A stretch of 43,430 nt of DNA. It comes from a virus. Within the stretch, counting starts at the first letter, position 1. Each line of letters begins with the position of its first letter. Of the stretch, positions 1 through 43,430 are shown piece by piece. Location of the stretch: IMG/VR virus record IMGVR_UViG_3300003775_000002; one strand, 5' to 3'. A program made the translations under genes and the position numbers. The notes under the pieces were generated by a model. That model was not told the origin of the DNA, made no database searches, and was given only the letters and a program-made list of their open reading frames with translations.

Positions 1-101
1 GCCTGCGTCTTTCGACACAAGCCGTTGATTCCATTACCTTTTACCACTGCAAATACTGGTCGGAGCGATAGGATTCGAACCTACGACCCTCTGATCCCAA
101 A
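1..101. repeat. attL copy of the 101-bp att duplication
   Basis: Positions 1..101 are identical base for base to 43330..43430. The window starts and ends exactly on the repeat. Confidence 0.9.
57..101 (-). pseudogene. Orphan 3' fragment of tRNA-Pro(UGG), anticodon loop to CCA
   Basis: The reverse complement reads TTTGGGA TCAGA GGGTC GTAGG TTCGAAT CCTAT CGCTCCG A CCA. These are the anticodon loop with UGG and G37, the 3' anticodon stem, a 5-nt variable loop, the T arm, the acceptor 3' strand with G72, discriminator A73 and CCA. Sequence past 101 cannot form the 5' anticodon stem, D arm or a CGGAGCG acceptor strand. Confidence 0.8.
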
Positions 102-156: not shown

Positions 157-170
157 TTTCCAATATTTCC
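157..170. promoter_or_regulatory. Candidate integrase arm-type site, inverted copy of ATATTGGAA
   Basis: TTTCCAATATTTCC contains the reverse complement of the ATATTGGAA core found at 219..231 and 43293..43305. Confidence 0.3.
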
Positions 171-218
171 GCACTCTCCAGCCCACGACAGCATGCGGCT
201 TTCCGGGTAGCGTCGAGC

Positions 219-231
219 AGGATATTGGAAG
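219..231. promoter_or_regulatory. Candidate integrase arm-type site AGGATATTGGAAG, attL-side arm
   Basis: This 13-mer is identical to 43293..43305. It lies between the att core and the int stop codon. Confidence 0.35.
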
Positions 232-235
232 GATT

Positions 236-1357
236 TCACCCCGCCTTCGGCACCTTCAGACGCACCTCGCTGACCGGCACCGCACGCGACTTCACATAGA
301 TCTCGGTCGTCTTCGAGTCAGCGTGTGCGGCAGCGACCTGCAGCTGGGCAAGCGTATAGCCGGCACGCTCGGCGTCGGTCAGCGCCTTGGCCCGGATGTC
401 CTTCACCGTGTACCCTGCATCTTCCAGCTTGGCTCGGCGCGCGGCCCGCTTCCATGCGGTCAGCACAGCGTTGGCCTCGTACGGCTGACCCTCGATCGAG
501 TGGATGACGAACTGGCTGCTCTTCACCTTGCCGAGTGCCTGGGCTCGCTTCAGAACCGCCTTGATCTCCGGGGTGATCGGCCAATCGACTGCCTCTGCCG
601 TGCTGTCCTCTGTCTTCGTGGGCACGAAATGGATGACCTTGGCATCCCAGTCCACCCACGACGATCCGCCAGCGGCCCCCGGGTCAGCCTTCCAGCGCAG
701 CAGCCGGATTTCGGTGGAGCGCTGGGCGGTCAGGTAGCACAGGTCGACGAAGCACTGCATCATCTCGCCGGCCGGAACCTTGCTGACGATCTCCTGGCCG
801 GCCTTCGTGGTGCGCACGTAGCTGGCCAGCTTTGCCCGGATGGCGCGGAAGTGAGCGTCCGTAATGTAGACGTCCCGGGCCTTGGGCTTCTTCAGTTTGA
901 CTTCGCGGCACGGGTTGGCGGCGATCAGCCGCTTGCCGATGCAGTAGTCGAAAAAGCCGGACATGAACGAGCGCATCACGCGCTGCATGTGCAGCTTGCC
1001 CGTCCAGTTTTGCCGCAGGAAATCGACGACGTCGGCAGGCGCCACGCTGGCCAGGCGGAAGTCCTTGAACGCCTCGCCGGCATACTTCCCGTACGCGGGC
1101 CAGGCCTTCTCTTTGTGAGCGTCCTTGTGCAGCCGGACGTATTCGGCAATCAGCGGGCTCATGTCGCCGGTGCCCGCATTGGATTCGAAGTCCCCAATCT
1201 CGGCCTCGAGGCGCTTCAGCATCGTGCGCTGCCCTTCATCCACGCGACACAGCCGAATCCATTTCTGGTCGCTCGGCCGCACCCAGTAGAAGCTGGCGCC
1301 GCGTTGGTACACGCGGCTCGGCATGCCCAGGTTCGTCTGCCGTCGGCGTGCGTTCAT
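236..1357 (-). CDS. int: Tyrosine recombinase / phage integrase
   Basis: ORF 236..1603 is trimmed to the ATG at 1357 (MNARRRQTNLGMPSRVY). It has an Arg box (AQRSTEIRLLRW), KDIRAKALTD, and a C-terminal AAHADSKTTEIYVKS with the catalytic Tyr. It is adjacent to the att site. Its ATG overlaps the upstream stop as ATGA. Confidence 0.9.
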   Translation of the reverse strand: MNARRRQTNLGMPSRVYQRGASFYWVRPSDQKWIRLCRVDEGQRTMLKRLEAEIGDFESNAGTGDMSPLIAEYVRLHKDAHKEKAWPAYGKYAGEAFKDFRLASVAPADVVDFLRQNWTGKLHMQRVMRSFMSGFFDYCIGKRLIAANPCREVKLKKPKARDVYITDAHFRAIRAKLASYVRTTKAGQEIVSKVPAGEMMQCFVDLCYLTAQRSTEIRLLRWKADPGAAGGSSWVDWDAKVIHFVPTKTEDSTAEAVDWPITPEIKAVLKRAQALGKVKSSQFVIHSIEGQPYEANAVLTAWKRAARRAKLEDAGYTVKDIRAKALTDAERAGYTLAQLQVAAAHADSKTTEIYVKSRAVPVSEVRLKVPKAG

Positions 1358-1614
1358 GCTGCGCGTCCTTGGAACGTGACCTTGCGGAGCGCCGGCCGCG
1401 CGGTGGGCGTGAGCGGCACCACTTCGGCATTGCCCACGCCGGCCTTCTTGGCCTCCAGCGCGCGATAGGTTTCCCAGGTCATCATGACCCGGCCGTCGCC
1501 GCGGCGCAGCGTCTCGATCCGGAACGCGGCTTCCAGCCAGCGCGCCTGTGCGGACCAGCGCTTCTTGCCGGTCAGCTCCTGCAGGTCTCCTTCGGTCATC
1601 CATCCGGTCTTCAT
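1354..1614 (-). CDS. Excisionase-like DUF4224-type small DNA-binding protein
   Basis: MKTGWMTEGDLQELTGKKRWSAQARWLEAAFRIETLRRGDGRVMMTWETY matches the DUF4224 pattern found upstream of phage integrases. A GGGGGA Shine-Dalgarno lies 7 nt before the ATG at 1614. The gene is translationally coupled to int. Confidence 0.65.
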   Translation of the reverse strand: MKTGWMTEGDLQELTGKKRWSAQARWLEAAFRIETLRRGDGRVMMTWETYRALEAKKAGVGNAEVVPLTPTARPALRKVTFQGRAA

Positions 1615-1691
1615 TTGTCGATCCCCCAAAGGCTGCGGGTCATTTCGATGATGCGTACTACTGCGTCGATCATTGGTCGATCTATGGTGAA

Positions 1692-12222: not shown

Positions 12223-13215
12223 TTACAGCCTGTTCTTGATCTTGCGGGCGGGCACCGGGTGGGCGATGTAGTACATCCAGGTGATGGCTTCCGGATCGAA
12301 GGTGAAAACCTCCTGGTCGTTGTAGCTGCCGAGCCTGATGCCCTGGCGGCGCGACAGCAGGCGCTTGATCATCGTTTCGCCAGTGTTCAGCCGCACGAGC
12401 ACGTCGTCTTCGAGCTCCGGCTCGGTGCCCGGCTCGACCAAGGCAAACTCGCCCGGGTTGTAGCGGGGGATCATGGACAGGCCCACGACTGGTGTCAGGA
12501 AGGCCTGCGGATCGGCGCTGGCCACTTCTGCAAACTGCTGAGTTGCTCCCACCGGATAGTCTCCATCGGTCCATATCCGGTCAGGCAGGCCGCCTTGCGC
12601 GCGGCCCACAACCGGAATGGCCCGGTACTTCGCTGTATTCGCCTGATAGGTAAGGGGCGTCGGCTCTGCCGGCTCGTCGTCCGCCTTCTTCTTCGGCCTG
12701 GCGCTCTTGGCGGGCAGCGGCTTTGGCCGGGGATCGTCGAACACGGCAGCACGCGGAGCGCCCTTACCCATGACCAGCCAGACGGCGTTGTAGCCGAATG
12801 CCTCCTGAATGCCCACCGCCTGGTCGAGCCTGATCGTCTTGACCTCGCCTGACGCCCATTGCTCCAGCGTCTCTAGCGAAACGCCGGCGGCCTTGGCCAG
12901 AGCATACGGCTTGATATCGGCGTCGGCCAGGAGTGTCTTCATCCGTTCGCTCAGCCCATTGTCCACGTCGGTCGCCGGCTCCAGGCTGGCGTCATACGCC
13001 ATTGAACCCTTGCCCGTCTGCAGCCAAGTGGCGCTGCAGCCGATCAGCTTCTGGGCTTCGATCATTCCCGGCCGCGACATGCCGCGGCGCTCCCAGTTGT
13101 TGATCGTTTGCTGGGATTGGTTGAGGGCCTTCGCTATGTCGGTAGGCGTGGGCTGCTCTTGGAGCCCTCTCAGGGTGCGTACTGCCTCGTAGAGGCGAAC
13201 CATCGTTGCGTGCAT
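12223..13215 (-). CDS. CI-like prophage repressor with two tandem XRE-type HTH domains and a C-terminal S24 (LexA-like) autopeptidase domain
   Basis: HTH 1 is PTDIAKALNQSQQTINNWERRG. HTH 2 is PYALAKAAGVSLETLEQWASGE. The S24 domain has the Ser motif VVGLSMIP and the Lys motif ETMIKRL. The start is uncertain: the ORF is open to 13299 (AGGTGG Shine-Dalgarno), but 13216..13299 holds the OR operators. ATG 13215 or 13203 is therefore preferred. Confidence 0.85.
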   Translation of the reverse strand: MHATMVRLYEAVRTLRGLQEQPTPTDIAKALNQSQQTINNWERRGMSRPGMIEAQKLIGCSATWLQTGKGSMAYDASLEPATDVDNGLSERMKTLLADADIKPYALAKAAGVSLETLEQWASGEVKTIRLDQAVGIQEAFGYNAVWLVMGKGAPRAAVFDDPRPKPLPAKSARPKKKADDEPAEPTPLTYQANTAKYRAIPVVGRAQGGLPDRIWTDGDYPVGATQQFAEVASADPQAFLTPVVGLSMIPRYNPGEFALVEPGTEPELEDDVLVRLNTGETMIKRLLSRRQGIRLGSYNDQEVFTFDPEAITWMYYIAHPVPARKIKNRL

Positions 13216-13249
13216 GCGCGGGATGCTCTCACAGGTAAACGGATCGTTG

Positions 13250-13291
13250 ATAAACAGCGCGTTTGCCTTTTCCTTAAACATGGTGTTTAAT
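13250..13291 (+). promoter_or_regulatory. Predicted PR promoter with two 17-bp operators (OR)
   Basis: TTGCCT (13263..13268) is followed by a 17-nt spacer and TTTAAT (13286..13291). The operators are ATAAACAgcgCGTTTGC (13250..13266) and the perfect palindrome TTAAACAtggTGTTTAA (13274..13290), with centres 24 bp apart. Confidence 0.65.
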
Positions 13292-13322
13292 CTCGTCATG
13301 GACCACCTACCGAGAGCCCGAG

Positions 13323-13520
13323 ATGGACGATCGCGAACTCATTGAGCGCCATGGCGGCTCGGCCGAATTGGCTCGAAAGCTGCACATGACCAAGCCGGGC
13401 AGCACCCAACGCGTCAACAACTGGAAGACGCGGGGTATCCCGCCGGCCGTCAAGCTGGAACGCCAGGACCTGTTTTCCGCAGAAGCCGTCGCGAAGCTCC
13501 CGTTACCGGTGGCCGCCTGA
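13323..13520 (+). CDS. Cro-like / YdaS-type HTH regulator
   Basis: GGSAELARKLHMTKPGSTQRVNNWKTRGIPP. It is divergent from the repressor and is the first gene after the predicted PR. Confidence 0.7.
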   Translation: MDDRELIERHGGSAELARKLHMTKPGSTQRVNNWKTRGIPPAVKLERQDLFSAEAVAKLPLPVAA

Positions 13521-34323: not shown

Positions 34324-36837
34324 ATGACACCGCAATGCCGCACTGCCGTCAGTGCCGCCGCTGGCCGGCCGCTGACGGACGCCGAGGTCAAGAAGATCGA
34401 TGATCGGCTATCAGCCACCATGCGCCAGATGGCGCGCCGTGACCCGGCCGCGTGGCAGGCCATGCCCCTGTCGCAGCGTGTGCTGGACGCCTCCCGCGAG
34501 GCGATGGCCCAGATCCAGCAAGAGGCCGCGCTGAAGGTCACGCGCGCCAGCCTGCAAGTGATCAAGACGGCGGCCATGGATACCCGCGTCACTGACCTGA
34601 TGACGCAGTTTTCCGAAGGCCGTAGCAAGGCTCTGGTCCGGGAAATGGACCTGACGTCGGCCTACGCCGAGGGCGTCAAGCGCGAGAACATGTCTCAGTT
34701 GATGGATCTGCTCGATGCTGCCGACAGCCGGCAGGGCGCGGGGGCGATCCGGCGTGGTCTGATGTTCCTGTTTGACGCCGAAAACCCTGGCATGACCCGT
34801 GATCTGGCCGTCGAAATAATTGCCAACGCCAATGGCGCCACGGGAAACACGCTCGCACAGAAGGGTGCCAAGGCGTGGCTGGACACCATCGAGCGAATGC
34901 GCCAACGCTTCAACACCTCAGGCGGAGATGTCGGCCAGCTCGACTATGGCTACCTGCCGCAGCCGCACGACAACGTGCGCGTGCGCGGTGATGGCTCCAA
35001 CGCGGCGCGCGCCGCATGGGCGAACAACACCCTGCCGCTGCTCGATCGCAGCCAGTACGTGCGCGAAGATGGCGCCCGCATGAACGATGCCGAAGTTCTG
35101 GACTTCCTGCGCGAGGCCTGGACGACCATTGCCACGGATGGCCTTAACAAGACGACACCGGGTAGCCGGCCAGCACCGGGCAGCGCCGCGCGCGCGAATG
35201 CCGGCAGCGCGACACGCCAGATCCACTACCGCGACGGGAATGCCTATCTGGAATACATGGGGCAGTACGGCGCGGGCAGCATGTACGACGCCATGCTAGG
35301 GCACGTCGGCAGGTTGGCGCGCGACATCGCGCTGGTCGAGCGATACGGCCCCAACCCGAATCAGCAGATGCGTCTGCAGTTTGACTTGGCTGCTCGGGCC
35401 GACAACGGGCTGAAGCGCTCGTTCGGGATGCTGCCGCAGTCGTATTGGGACGTCCTGAACGGCACCAGCAGCGCGCCAGTCAGCGGCCGCATTGCAGAGA
35501 TCGGCACGCATGCCCGGAACATCCAGACCTTCGGCAAGCTGCAGGGTGCCATCCTGTCCAGCGTGACCGACGTCGGCACGTATTTCGTGACCACCGGATT
35601 CAACAATCTCAGCTACTGGGACGCGCTGCGCAACATCCCCCGCCAGATGAGCGGCGATACCCGCGACTTTCTGTCCATGCACGGCATCATCGCCGAGTCG
35701 ATGATCTCAGACCTGAACCGTTGGAGCGGGGACAACATTCGGCAGACCTGGTCGGGCAGGCTGGCCAACAGCACGATGAAGCTGTCGTTCATGAACGTCT
35801 GGACCGACACGCTGCGCCGTGCCTACAGCATGACCATGATGAACGGCATGGCCAAGCTGGCGAAAACGGACTGGAAGGGCCTGACCGAATACGACCGCTG
35901 GCGCATGACAAGCAAGGGCCTGACCGAATCGGATTGGGATGTCATCCGCCAGGCCCAGTTGACTGCCTACAACGGCCAGGATTTTCTGACGCCAGAGTCT
36001 ATCCGCGCCGGCGGCGACCCGCGCGCCAACGAGGTGGTGGCCAAGGTGCTGGGGCTGATCACCGACGAGTCGGAATATGCAGTGCTGAACCCGGACCTGT
36101 CTACCAAGGCATTGCAGTCGTGGGGCGGCACGCAGCGCGGCACGCCGCTGGGCGAGCTGGCGCGCTCAGTGATGCAGTTCAAGTCGTTCCCGATCGCTAT
36201 GATCTCGCGGCACTGGGGAAGGTTCACCGATGCTCCCGGTGGCATCCCTGGCGCGCCTACGTTTCTCGGCAACCGTGGCTTCTACGGCGCGGCGATGATG
36301 GTGTCGCTTACCGCGCTGGGTGCGATCGCCTTCCAGAACAAGCAACTGGTGCAAGGCAAAGACGCGATCGACATGGACCCGTTCGAAAACCCGAAATTCT
36401 GGCTGCGTGCGTTGGCGCAAGGCGGCGGCCTCGGTATCGTGGGCGACTTCCTGTTGACCGACCCTACCGAGAACCCGGGTGACTCCACGGCCAACGCTAT
36501 CAAGAACGTTGCCGGGCCCAGCATCGGCAGCGCGTTCGACCTGGTGGGCAAGCTGGGCATCGAGAACGTCTATCAGGCGGCGCACGGCAAGGACACGCAT
36601 GTGGGCGCCGAGACGCTGCGTTTCGCGCGTAACCACCTGCCGTATGTGAATCTCTGGTACGGCAAGGCCGCACTGGACGCAGCGGGTCTGGCCGCGTTGC
36701 AGGAGAACCTGTCGCCTGGATACCACTCGAAAATGCGCCAGCGCGCGCAGCGCGATTGGAACCAGGATTACTGGTGGCGGCCGGGCGAGCCAACGCCTGA
36801 AAGGGCGCCGGATATCGGTGCGGCATTCGGCAGGTAA
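34324..36837 (+). CDS. Large internal virion / ejection protein
   Basis: ORF trimmed to the ATG at 34324 (MTPQCRTAVSAAAGRPLTDAEVKKIDDRL). A GGGAG Shine-Dalgarno is present. 837 aa. Confidence 0.6.
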   Translation: MTPQCRTAVSAAAGRPLTDAEVKKIDDRLSATMRQMARRDPAAWQAMPLSQRVLDASREAMAQIQQEAALKVTRASLQVIKTAAMDTRVTDLMTQFSEGRSKALVREMDLTSAYAEGVKRENMSQLMDLLDAADSRQGAGAIRRGLMFLFDAENPGMTRDLAVEIIANANGATGNTLAQKGAKAWLDTIERMRQRFNTSGGDVGQLDYGYLPQPHDNVRVRGDGSNAARAAWANNTLPLLDRSQYVREDGARMNDAEVLDFLREAWTTIATDGLNKTTPGSRPAPGSAARANAGSATRQIHYRDGNAYLEYMGQYGAGSMYDAMLGHVGRLARDIALVERYGPNPNQQMRLQFDLAARADNGLKRSFGMLPQSYWDVLNGTSSAPVSGRIAEIGTHARNIQTFGKLQGAILSSVTDVGTYFVTTGFNNLSYWDALRNIPRQMSGDTRDFLSMHGIIAESMISDLNRWSGDNIRQTWSGRLANSTMKLSFMNVWTDTLRRAYSMTMMNGMAKLAKTDWKGLTEYDRWRMTSKGLTESDWDVIRQAQLTAYNGQDFLTPESIRAGGDPRANEVVAKVLGLITDESEYAVLNPDLSTKALQSWGGTQRGTPLGELARSVMQFKSFPIAMISRHWGRFTDAPGGIPGAPTFLGNRGFYGAAMMVSLTALGAIAFQNKQLVQGKDAIDMDPFENPKFWLRALAQGGGLGIVGDFLLTDPTENPGDSTANAIKNVAGPSIGSAFDLVGKLGIENVYQAAHGKDTHVGAETLRFARNHLPYVNLWYGKAALDAAGLAALQENLSPGYHSKMRQRAQRDWNQDYWWRPGEPTPERAPDIGAAFGR

Positions 36838-41286: not shown

Positions 41287-41582
41287 TCGCCGCACTCCTA
41301 TCCGACCTCTGGCCGATCCTTGCCGGGGGCGTCGTCGCGATCGTGGCGCTGCTCACTGGATGGGCGCGGCACAAGCAGGCCCAGACCACAGAGGCGCAGG
41401 CGCGGCAGAAGGAAGCCGAGACCGACAAGAGGGTTGCCCAGGCGCAGGCCATCGAGGCCAAGGCCAACGAGGACGCCGCGCGCGCTGGCGCCGACAACGC
41501 AAAGGTGAGACGAGATGAGGATTCTGCTGCTGCTGGCGAGCCTGACGCTAACCGCATGTTGCACGACGAATGGGGAAAGTAA
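41283..41582 (+). CDS. Rz: i-spanin (Rz-like)
   Basis: ORF trimmed to the ATG at 41283. It has an N-terminal TM helix, LWPILAGGVVAIVALLTGW, followed by a charged coiled coil. Confidence 0.7.
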   Translation: MIAALLSDLWPILAGGVVAIVALLTGWARHKQAQTTEAQARQKEAETDKRVAQAQAIEAKANEDAARAGADNAKVRRDEDSAAAGEPDANRMLHDEWGK

Positions 41583-41757
41583 GGCGCCCGAGCCGCAGAT
41601 CGTGGTGAAGACCCGCACCGTAGACACGGCATGCGACTGGACGAGACCCATCTACGTGGAAGAGGCCGACGTCCTGACGGATTCGACTGCCCAGGCTATC
41701 CTCGCGCACAACCGCGCCGGAGCCAAGCTTTGCGGCTGGAAGCCGAAACGCAAGTAA
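41515..41757 (+). CDS. Rz1: o-spanin lipoprotein (Rz1-like), overlapping the end of Rz
   Basis: The signal and lipobox are MRILLLLASLTLTAC. It starts inside the Rz 3' end in another frame. An AGGTGAGA Shine-Dalgarno is present. Confidence 0.7.
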   Translation: MRILLLLASLTLTACCTTNGESKAPEPQIVVKTRTVDTACDWTRPIYVEEADVLTDSTAQAILAHNRAGAKLCGWKPKRK

Positions 41758-41758
41758 G

Positions 41759-42889
41759 CTACTCGGCCCGCATTTGCATCGGCACCGTTTCGGGTGCCAT
41801 CACCTCGCGTTTCGGCCGGAACAACTTGGCCAGGGCCGTTCCCCATGCTGCTGTCGGGTCCTCAATATACCGCTTCCAGAAATGGGCGACGATCAACCCG
41901 GCGGCGGTCAGCACCAGCATCCGGCCCCATTCGCCGGCAATGCCGATGGGGTGGGGGAAGTACTTGATGGCCACGCGCTCGAGCGTCCAATGGGTCAGGT
42001 ACAGGGCGAAGGATATGTCCCCCAGCCACACGGCAAAACGTGGAATCCTCAGCTGACCATGGTGCTCTGCGAACAGGGCGCCGACCAGCAATACAGTCGT
42101 CGGCAGCGCGGCCGATAGCAGCGACATCTTCAAGTCAGTGGTGACGTAGGACAGGCCTAGGAAGAATGCGCCGACGCCCATCAGCCCGAACGAGAAGCCA
42201 ATAGACACCCGGTCACGATACTTCGCATAGATCCACGCGCAGCCAACTCCCGCCAGAAATTCGAGCATCAGCGGGTTCGTCGCGAGCCGGGCATACAGGT
42301 TGTTGAACGGGATGACGCTGTTGTGCGGGTTGATCGACGGCGCAAGGCCATAGGCCATCGGCGCCACCAGCACCAAGCCGGCCAGCGCGATCGACACCGC
42401 TGCCAGAGCGAAGCGGCCAAACACCAAGCAAGCGCAGAAGATGGCATAGAACGCCATCTCATAGTTCAGCGTCCAACCCACCTCATTGAGCATCTCCGAG
42501 TAGTAGGGCGCAGGCAGGTTGCCCAGTGGGTAGAACGCCAGCATCTTCAGCAGGTCGTCATTCGTGGCGCCACGGCCAAGGATATAGGCGATCACCGCCA
42601 TGCTGGCCCAGAACGCAGGAGCCACGCGGAACGCGCGCTTGATGCCGAACTCTAGTGGGGATACCGGGCCGTTACTTCGCGAGAGCACGCCCACCCAGGC
42701 AAGAATGAAGCCGCTGATCACGAAGAAGATATCGACGCCGAGAAAGCCCTTCATCACCACATTCCATACAGACTCGTCCACTGCCTGGACGCCCGTCGGG
42801 AACTGGAATCGCATATGGAAGATGAAAACCGACATTGCCGCGAACCCGCGCAGCGCTTGGACGGAATCAAGCTTTTGGTTGTACGACAT
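41759..42889 (-). CDS. Acyltransferase family 3 membrane protein (O-antigen/exopolysaccharide acetylase-like), lysogenic conversion candidate
   Basis: KLDSVQALRGFAAMSVFIFH is the family signature. The protein is polytopic and hydrophobic throughout. It is on the opposite strand at the prophage end, with an AT-rich upstream region. Confidence 0.85.
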   Translation of the reverse strand: MSYNQKLDSVQALRGFAAMSVFIFHMRFQFPTGVQAVDESVWNVVMKGFLGVDIFFVISGFILAWVGVLSRSNGPVSPLEFGIKRAFRVAPAFWASMAVIAYILGRGATNDDLLKMLAFYPLGNLPAPYYSEMLNEVGWTLNYEMAFYAIFCACLVFGRFALAAVSIALAGLVLVAPMAYGLAPSINPHNSVIPFNNLYARLATNPLMLEFLAGVGCAWIYAKYRDRVSIGFSFGLMGVGAFFLGLSYVTTDLKMSLLSAALPTTVLLVGALFAEHHGQLRIPRFAVWLGDISFALYLTHWTLERVAIKYFPHPIGIAGEWGRMLVLTAAGLIVAHFWKRYIEDPTAAWGTALAKLFRPKREVMAPETVPMQMRAE

Positions 42890-43012
42890 ATTTTTGTCAG
42901 TTTTGTATCTTGTCTCGCGCGGCAGTGTACTAAAACTGAAACAAACAAAGGCGCCTTACCATTCGCTTTCGTATCCTCCTGCAGTTGGGGTAGCGTTGAA
43001 ATTGGCTCGATG

Positions 43013-43032
43013 CACTGTTCGGATATACAGTG
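43013..43032. promoter_or_regulatory. LexA (SOS) box-like palindrome CACTGTtcggatatACAGTG
   Basis: It matches CTGT-N8-ACAG exactly (43015..43030) with 6-bp perfect arms. It lies 6 nt upstream of the ATG at 43039. Confidence 0.55.
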
Positions 43033-43038
43033 CCGACC

Positions 43039-43242
43039 ATGTCCACTGGATTCCAACCGCCCGCGCCGCCACTACCGTCCTATGTCGTCTGGGACCGGTA
43101 TGCCTGCCGCACGTGCTCTCGGTTGGTGGTCAGTGTGCCCTACGAGTACCCCCACCCGAGAATGCATCTGAGGTGCAGGATTGGGCGCGATTGCCCGGTG
43201 GTCGTTTGCAGGGAATGGGAGAGGGAGAGCGGGGTGGACTGA
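43039..43242 (+). CDS. Small Cys-rich protein (67 aa), possibly a zinc ribbon, possibly SOS-controlled
   Basis: MSTGFQPPAPPLPSYVVWDRYACRTCSRLVV...LRCRIGRDCPVVVC. Third positions are moderately G/C-biased. It is bracketed by the LexA-like box and a hairpin plus T-run. No Shine-Dalgarno is visible. Confidence 0.4.
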   Translation: MSTGFQPPAPPLPSYVVWDRYACRTCSRLVVSVPYEYPHPRMHLRCRIGRDCPVVVCREWERESGVD

Positions 43243-43248
43243 TTATCC

Positions 43249-43277
43249 ATACAGTGCTGTACAGGACACTGTATTTT
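43249..43277 (+). terminator. Rho-independent terminator-like hairpin
   Basis: ATACAGTG (43249..43256) pairs with CACTGTAT (43267..43274) across a 10-nt loop and is followed by a T run. It lies 7 nt after the stop at 43242. Confidence 0.5.
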
Positions 43278-43292
43278 GGAAATAGAGTTGGG

Positions 43293-43305
43293 AGGATATT
43301 GGAAG
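43293..43305. promoter_or_regulatory. Candidate integrase arm-type site AGGATATTGGAAG, attR-side arm
   Basis: Identical to 219..231. It lies 25 bp from the att core. Confidence 0.35.
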
Positions 43306-43321
43306 CCGGCGAGCGACCAAG

Positions 43322-43355
43322 AAAAAACGGCCTGCGTCTTTCGACACAAGCCGTT
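43322..43355 (-). terminator. Rho-independent terminator of the tRNA-Pro gene
   Basis: The minus strand reads AACGGCTTGTGTC GAAA GACGCAGGCCGTT TTTT. This is a 13-bp stem including two G-U pairs, a GAAA loop and a six-T run whose first two T pair in the stem. It lies about 30 nt downstream of the tRNA CCA end. Confidence 0.75.
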
Positions 43356-43430
43356 GATTCCATTACCTTTTACCACTGCAAATACTGGTCGGAGCGATAG
43401 GATTCGAACCTACGACCCTCTGATCCCAAA
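43330..43430. repeat. attR copy of the 101-bp att duplication
   Basis: Identical to 1..101. Confidence 0.9.
43386..43430 (-). tRNA. tRNA-Pro(UGG), 3' 45 nt only; the gene continues beyond the window edge
   Basis: It has the same 45 nt as 57..101 (anticodon loop UUUGGGA, T arm, acceptor with G72/A73, CCA). The 5' half would lie to the right of 43430 and cannot be seen. Confidence 0.7.

Follow-up and report, generated by a model that had tools for sequence, protein, structure and literature searches.

In several temperate phages, a small gene that lies outside the immunity region has its own promoter under a LexA box, as exemplified by 186 Tum, N15 AntC and Gifsy GfoA/GfhA (PMC3121763). By this design, insulated and far from cI/cro, the SOS response reaches the phage via LexA and not, or not only, via self-cleavage of the phage repressor. 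The same design recurs in the DNA analyzed here, a stretch of 43,430 nucleotides from IMG/VR virus record IMGVR_UViG_3300003775_000002 (hereafter the window), in which a LexA box precedes a gene for a 67-residue protein with four conserved cysteines close to one end of a prophage. Unlike Tum, AntC and the Gifsy proteins, with which it shares neither sequence nor fold similarity, this protein is encoded by a gene that is dispensable among phages with near-identical repressors and has homologues on conjugative plasmids, and it occurs in a phage whose S24-type repressor retains its catalytic dyad.

Other described systems offer partial parallels. Gene cI of phage lambda, transcribed from PRM, is a leaderless phage gene. 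Both lambda cI and, according to its predicted start, the small gene of the window begin at the A of the AUG and have no Shine-Dalgarno sequence, but the predicted leaderless promoter of the window sits in a host LexA operator whereas lambda PRM sits in phage operators. To our knowledge, an operator-embedded -10 element combined with a leaderless mRNA has not been described for Tum. P2 Ogr/Delta and Mu Com are small zinc-ribbon phage regulators with four cysteines. The small protein is like them in being phage-encoded, in its length of 60-70 residues and in having a CxxC knuckle and a second cysteine pair, and differs from them in lacking a second CxxC or a Cx4C knuckle and in its proline-rich N-terminus and acidic RE.GVD C-terminus. 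Finally, the chromosomal LexA regulon, both of E. coli and of beta-Proteobacteria, uses the same motif in operators that overlap the RNA polymerase site (PMC3323433). Unlike chromosomal SOS genes, the small gene is borne by mobile elements, and its family, without any NCBIfam or Pfam match, is not among the described SOS genes.

Our preferred interpretation, with a probability of roughly 0.6, is that the unit is an autonomous SOS-gated accessory gene (a 'moron') at the junction between the late region and attP of a Burkholderia prophage. Control of a phage accessory gene by a host LexA box is in itself known. New are the protein family and its spread over Burkholderiales phages, a phage-plasmid and conjugative plasmids, together with a predicted compact layout of operator, -10 element and leaderless start that is conserved over the whole family.

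LexA box, small gene and predicted promoter

The unit comprises the following features (positions in the window).
43013..43032, no strand: LexA (SOS) box CACTGT-tcggatat-ACAGTG, predicted operator of the small gene and sole CTGT-N8-ACAG in the window
43039..43242, plus strand: 67-aa gene for a four-cysteine putative zinc-ribbon protein, recognized by its homologues, its ratio of nonsynonymous to synonymous substitution rates (dN/dS) and its G+C content at third codon positions (GC3)
43002..43007, plus strand: -35-like hexamer TTGGCT of the predicted promoter, 18 nt upstream of TACAGT
43026..43031, plus strand: predicted -10-like hexamer TACAGT, in the right half of the box

The palindrome with perfect arms reported in the initial annotation is indeed present, with CACTGT at 43013-43018 and ACAGTG at 43027-43032 on either side of the spacer. 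Its core, CACTGTTCGGATATACAGTG, is a perfect match to CTGT-N8-ACAG with an AT-rich spacer and is unique in the window. By itself, this occurrence is not significant, as one site in 43.4 kb compares with 0.47 expected and at least one was found in 41% of shuffles. The box becomes significant because every homologous locus has a box at the same distance from the start codon. About 20 distinct loci, drawn from genomes, viral contigs, metagenomes and plasmids, were collected down to 35% protein identity. In these loci, members at 35-45% identity included, the motif ends 7-14 nt before the start codon; it reads CTGT-N8-CCAG in three plasmid-type loci and is perfect in all others. When the loci were aligned on the box, information content was high only within the 20 bp and approximately zero just outside. 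The upstream DNA has diverged to noise, except for a TTG at the -35 position in about 10 of the 17 loci. Moreover, the box accompanies the open reading frame (ORF) despite differing upstream genes, be it a co-directional gene (L001), a DUF2188 gene (L003), an MBOAT gene (L012) or a ligase gene (L013 and L029). The suggestion that the palindrome might serve the divergent acyltransferase gene is thus contradicted, and a role as operator of that gene is ruled out, by the constant distance of 7-14 nt to the ORF at loci where the upstream gene differs or is co-directional.

The motif fits the hosts in question. CTGT-N8-ACAG extends to most beta-Proteobacteria, including Burkholderiaceae (PMC3323433), and tandem boxes of this type precede the host lexA in L003, L004 (Cupriavidus sp. 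2SB), L012 and L023, indicating that the hosts of these elements use the motif; this comparison was made with the lexA promoters in these four homologous loci, not with that of the window's own host. The initial proposal of a LexA operator for the small ORF is borne out by the conserved spacing across homologous loci, and LexA gating of the small gene is, on this comparative evidence, highly probable.

The ATG at 43039, six nt past the palindrome, opens a frame of 67 codons plus TGA that ends at 43242, as originally described. Conservation of this frame had been named beforehand as a test, and homologous frames are present in related phage loci and plasmids. Relatives were found in a collection of 5.8 billion proteins and correspond to 11 representative clusters in a library of 1.84 billion proteins, so the family is real but rare. 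On the other hand, no homologue was found by tblastn or blastn among 50,697 isolated phage records, in which the tRNA-Pro att core alone was matched. Compared with its closest relative (L001, 85% identity), the window gene has a dN/dS of 0.12. Most pairs that include the window gene give 0.12-0.36 (range 0.07-0.62), the median of the 79 unsaturated pairs is 0.25, and variation is greatest at the third codon position. GC3 is 0.77, similar to that of other genes of this phage. Homologues, purifying selection and GC3 thus identify the ORF as a real gene, and dN/dS and GC3 rule out that it is non-coding.

The frame contains C23xxC26 and C46x5C52x4C57. The Cys-rich spacing initially noted holds for C23, C26, C46 and C57, which are conserved, while C52 is variable; the pattern of the family is C-x2-C-x19-C-x10-14-C, which suggests one zinc site. 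Invariant or nearly so are C23, C26, C46, C57, P13, Y15, E36, P38, R62, E63 and G65, and conserved motifs are found at both termini (MSTGFQPP..P.P.Y at the N-terminus and RE.GVD at the very C-terminal end). AlphaFold2, run with 16 and with 23 sequences, predicted a beta-hairpin (29-32/43-46) at a low confidence score (pLDDT) of 53 and 60. A Foldseek comparison of these low-confidence models with PDB and BFVD yielded no match at E<1. Searches of Pfam, PHROGs, NCBIfam and PADLOC with the window protein and 16-23 family members returned isolated chance-level matches only. Similarly, a profile search of PDB sequences gave nothing below E 0.07, and no Pfam zinc-finger model was matched at E up to 5 besides isolated chance matches of single members. 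The family searches revealed no helix-turn-helix (HTH) or winged-helix signature, and the small protein has no transmembrane segment or obvious toxin motif.

In 14 of the 17 loci, TACAGT is part of the right box half. Its final T precedes the A of the start codon by 7-8 nt in 12 of the 17, and about 10 of the 17 have a TTGnnn at 17-18 nt spacing. Because this -10-like hexamer is located inside the box, bound LexA would occlude it. Its distance to the start codon is that expected between a -10 element and a transcription start, placing the predicted start at or next to the AUG. No Shine-Dalgarno sequence is present in any of the 17 loci. Both the missing Shine-Dalgarno sequence and the nearly leaderless mRNA of the initial annotation are therefore supported. 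Of its weak promoter (TTGGCT/TATACA), TTGGCT is kept and the -10 is now read as TACAGT, TATACA being an alternative that gives the same conclusion. A leaderless or near-leaderless mRNA is likely, judging from this conserved layout.

Automatic gene calls of several members (P0005, P0006, P0012 and P0014) begin at the internal Met12 and yield 56-aa products. This start constitutes a systematic annotation error of the family, presumably caused by the missing ribosome-binding site at the true start. Such calls, like the missing annotation on pMOL30 described below, are what one typically sees when a gene lacks a ribosome-binding site.

Taken together, the following course of events can be proposed. 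In a lysogen, host LexA on the 20-bp box at 43013..43032 would cover the -10 of a weak sigma-70 promoter and silence the small gene independently of the phage repressor. Upon DNA damage, active RecA would promote self-cleavage of LexA and the promoter would become free. RNA polymerase would then start at or within 1-2 nt of the A of the ATG (43039), and the leaderless mRNA would be translated directly into a 67-residue protein, most likely with one zinc bound via C23, C26, C46 and C57. The product may be a small protein-binding effector that is released early in the SOS response. Candidate targets are components of the host's SOS response, replication or division and, more generally, the S24-type repressor fold.

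Prophage setting and the attP arm

Features at the attachment site and downstream of the small gene are listed below.
43330..43430, minus strand: attR copy of the 101-bp att repeat, consisting of the 3' part of tRNA-Pro and part of its terminator
43249..43278, plus strand: inverted repeat ATACAGTG-N10-CACTGTAT plus TTTT, possible weak intrinsic terminator and part of a conserved attP arm
43239..43254, no strand: degenerate second LexA-like box CTGA-ttatccat-ACAG, CTGAttatccatACAG, with one mismatch, overlapping the TGA stop codon
43293..43305, plus strand: candidate arm-type integrase site AGGATATTGGAAG, with a second exact copy at 219..231, across the att core

The window corresponds to a prophage with a 101-bp direct repeat at its ends, positions 1..101 being identical to 43330..43430. 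Within attR, the 3' part of tRNA-Pro covers 43389..43430 (minus strand), and the terminator scan located the terminator hairpin of this tRNA at 43355..43326 (minus strand); a search of 42700..43430 against Rfam gave nothing besides the partial tRNA. The same att core is annotated as attP in Burkholderia phages phiE125 and phi1026b. As the integrase gene (236..1357/1603, minus strand) is located at the opposite, left end, the small gene belongs to the phage DNA and lies across attP from int. Directly upstream of int lies a DUF4224 (Xis-like) ORF (1354..1629, minus strand). The longest integrase ORF reaches into it with its 5' extension; the probable integrase start is near 1357, not 1603. The two exact copies of the 13-mer AGGATATTGGAAG flank the att repeat, with 0.28 matches expected at up to 2 mismatches, and a looser copy occurs at 158..172 on the minus strand.

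On its other side, the unit is bordered by an Acyl_transf_3 O-acetyltransferase gene (41759..42889, minus strand; Pfam), which is followed by an Rz1-like spanin at 41515..41757. The initially described position of the unit between this conversion gene and the att repeat is thereby confirmed. Between the two divergent units, an imperfect inverted repeat of 14 nt, TTTTTGTCAGTTTT / AAAACTGAAACAAA (42891..42945), immediately precedes the start codon of the acyltransferase gene and could have a regulatory or terminator-like role.

The hairpin downstream of the small gene has arms at 43249-43256 (ATACAGTG) and 43267-43274 (CACTGTAT), eight pairs including three G-C pairs, a 10-nt loop and four T, with a folding free energy of -12.8 kcal/mol and a z score of -1.9. 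It was not called by the terminator scan; typical intrinsic terminators combine a stem rich in G+C with a short loop and five or more T. The 43-kb window contains the octamer ATACAGTG three times, each copy within 43025..43274; 0.42 copies were expected in the entire window, and 0 of 100 shuffles had three. The hairpin stem is thus built of LexA half-sites in tail-to-tail order. The left arm forms, together with the stop codon, the second box CTGAttatccatACAG, which is absent from other ORF-bearing loci.

A related contig, L084 (IMGVR_UViG_2654587508_000003), encodes a 74%-identical endolysin and has the same tRNA-Pro att arm, without the small ORF. Exactly at the position of the window's second box it carries a perfect LexA box (CTGTGCATCCATACAG; TCCTGTGCATCCATACAGTA), followed by the same inverted repeat, TATTTTGGAAA and GATATTGGAAG, the form in which the arm-type repeat AGGATATTGGAAG is kept there. 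The stretches compared are 6907..6960 of L084 and 43239..43305 of the window. Since the same arm is found without the ORF, the second box and the hairpin belong to the attP arm and not to the module. The inverted repeat and T run that had been annotated as the terminator of the module are thus present, but the hairpin is marginal as a terminator and not module-specific; in the window it may stop the transcript of the ORF before it runs antisense into tRNA-Pro. An ORF cassette seems to have been gained or lost at a resident LexA box. In L084, a minus-strand gene of the lipoprotein/SGNH type begins about 45 nt left of the box. The box may control this adjacent gene, be left over from loss of the ORF, or act in attP.

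The host lexA gene is located 1-5 kb from the prophage end with the small gene in four independent loci, at the following positions.
L003, 5990..6710
L004, 7494..8210
L012, 7001..7720
L023, 10280..10994
The recurrence is striking and probably reflects the position of the attB site.

Carriers of the gene and its possible function

The collections were scanned with sequence patterns, by which divergent members can be missed. Carriers comprise phages, a 106-kb phage-plasmid and pMOL30-type conjugative plasmids of Cupriavidus. In phage loci, the gene follows the lysis cassette and any conversion genes and stands beside attP or int, while integrases and tRNA targets differ; in L012, MBOAT/AlgX genes fill the att-adjacent slot. 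Among 20 IMG/VR loci with a related endolysin, three carry the gene, and an IMG/VR scan with the second subfamily gave no match. The phage-plasmid, from Cupriavidus metallidurans, encodes tail, capsid and terminase as well as TrfA and ParA, and the small gene adjoins trfA. In this element (strain ZM16, NZ_CP090528.1; L036), a second very strong LexA box, TACTGTATGGATATACAGTA, is found at 36414..36433 in a 1.2-kb stretch without annotated genes. In conjugative plasmids of the pMOL30 family, the homologue is part of the backbone, near par genes. The pMOL30 copy itself (L033 6976..7213; NC_007971.2 226178..226387) has a CTGT-N8-CCAG box and a GTG start and corresponds to no feature in the available gene table; a second plasmid of this family has a homologue of the same kind (L034 7977..8213). 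Additionally, a second perfect box is present in pMOL30 at L033 3133..3148, near the gene for an SOS-response-associated peptidase.

The sporadic spread, together with terminal motifs that are invariant across immunity types and plasmids, fits an accessory gene whose product has a conserved target. That the small protein is such an effector we propose tentatively, at slightly less than even odds; different hosts and mobile elements probably share its target, and the repressor of this phage in particular is a less likely one. The comparative evidence shows that the gene is real and that its predicted operator, the spacing and the missing Shine-Dalgarno sequence are conserved. It also supports the notion, raised initially, of an autonomous unit that provides a separate SOS input parallel to the S24 repressor. 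Several observations weigh against the accessory-gene interpretation or parts of it. LexA binding, the transcription start and zinc binding are all deduced from sequence, and with pLDDT values of 53-60 the putative zinc-ribbon fold rests on the cysteine pattern. A generic sigma-70 promoter scan made no call in the region of the small gene, and several loci have a weak -35 element or none. Not all members would be strictly leaderless, given a box-to-ATG gap of 9-14 nt in five loci, and the plasmid subgroup with its CCAG box and GTG start fits the leaderless model poorly.

A LexA-controlled antirepressor of the 186 Tum, N15 AntC or Gifsy GfoA/GfhA kind, either dedicated to the phage or cross-acting on the repressor of a co-resident prophage, would constitute a second or cross-acting SOS input into induction. 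Such a function would agree with the shared architecture, a LexA box on a small gene outside the immunity region, and with the precedent of Fels-1, which pairs a cleavable CI-type repressor with an antirepressor acting on other prophages (PMC3121763). Moreover, in the phage-plasmid the gene lies near a 177-aa regulator with an HTH only, devoid of an S24 domain, and no product named S24 peptidase or LexA-like is listed in gene tables covering about 92 of the 106 kb. In the window, the box and the small ORF (43013..43242) likewise lie outside the immunity region, which spans 12223..13520 with the repressor (12223..13299, minus strand) and a divergent Cro-like gene (13323..13520); no close relative of this early region was found among the 50,697 isolated phage records. 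The longest repressor ORF leaves only 23 bp to the Cro-like gene, so that the true repressor start is probably further in. The repressor has two HTH regions and a Peptidase_S24 domain with GLSM and IKRL. The S24 domain noted initially is thus present with its Ser/Lys dyad retained, which argues against a need for an antirepressor, yet Gly-Gly is aligned at the Ala-Gly cleavage site of LexA, for which reason self-cleavage is not assured. The distribution speaks against an antirepressor as well. Co-occurrence with repressor type was assessed indirectly, from flanks of up to 10 kb. Out of eight IMG/VR contigs with repressors 78-91% identical to that of the window, just one is among the five IMG/VR contigs carrying the gene, and the remaining carriers have unrelated repressors; the phage of L010/L044 has the same repressor type as the window. 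The terminal motifs are invariant among carriers of other immunity types, arguing for a conserved target, homologues occur in the backbone of pMOL30-type plasmids, and in neither sequence nor fold was the protein found to resemble a known antirepressor family. For these reasons a Tum-type antirepressor is unsupported as originally stated and we consider an antirepressor of any kind unlikely, whereas the data agree better with the alternative then offered, a different SOS-induced function.

The accessory slot beside att gathers conversion and defence genes, such as the neighbouring O-acyltransferase, and the gene is small, sporadic and present on several kinds of mobile element. An SOS-induced toxin, a growth or division inhibitor, or a defence or exclusion factor, comparable to Kil, DicB or SulA-type proteins, would suit this context, but there is no PADLOC match, no transmembrane segment or obvious toxin motif, and no conserved adjacent antitoxin partner, the neighbours being variable, which makes a function of this type improbable. 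The position beside attP or int in most phage loci, despite differing integrases and tRNA targets, could also suggest an excisionase (recombination directionality factor) switched on by SOS. Xis candidates are located elsewhere, however: the window already has the DUF4224 ORF upstream of int, and L029 has a lambda-type Exc (PF07825) beside int in addition to the small gene. Plasmid and phage-plasmid members are found away from any integrase, and neither an HTH or winged-helix signature nor a Pfam match is present, so the excisionase hypothesis was rejected. Lastly, the palindromes might be attP-arm elements that bind integrase, Xis or IHF, or at which LexA acts on recombination or on minus-strand neighbours, the SOS-box match being secondary. 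This would account for the perfect box and the same inverted repeat in the same tRNA-Pro arm of ORF-less L084, close to its minus-strand lipoprotein/SGNH-type gene and homologous to the second box and hairpin of the window. It is applicable to these two elements only, since the first box follows the ORF to unrelated att sites, to the phage-plasmid and to conjugative plasmids, always 7-14 nt from the start, and as an explanation of the whole unit it is very improbable.

Beyond an accessory effector in general, the family could represent a new class of SOS-released zinc-ribbon effectors that act on the RecA*/LexA/S24 axis or on another core host machine, a possibility we regard as doubtful. Such a protein might, for example, serve as an adaptor in the self-cleavage of S24 repressors or LexA, either promoting or blocking it, and its cassette might spread by recombination at LexA boxes, as the perfect box of L084 at the insertion point would suggest.

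Probable SOS control of a gene family of mobile elements in Burkholderiales

LexA-gated phage genes are the route by which some prophages sense DNA damage, and the Tum, AntC and Gifsy antirepressors have reshaped the view of prophage induction and cross-talk. Should the small gene encode one more antirepressor or a dispensable moron, the gain in insight would be modest. Its hosts, Burkholderia and Cupriavidus, include pathogens and models of metal resistance such as CH34/pMOL30, and members of the family are often mis-called or unannotated because they have no ribosome-binding site. The family provides a candidate new SOS effector and may offer a natural example of leaderless promoters embedded in an operator.

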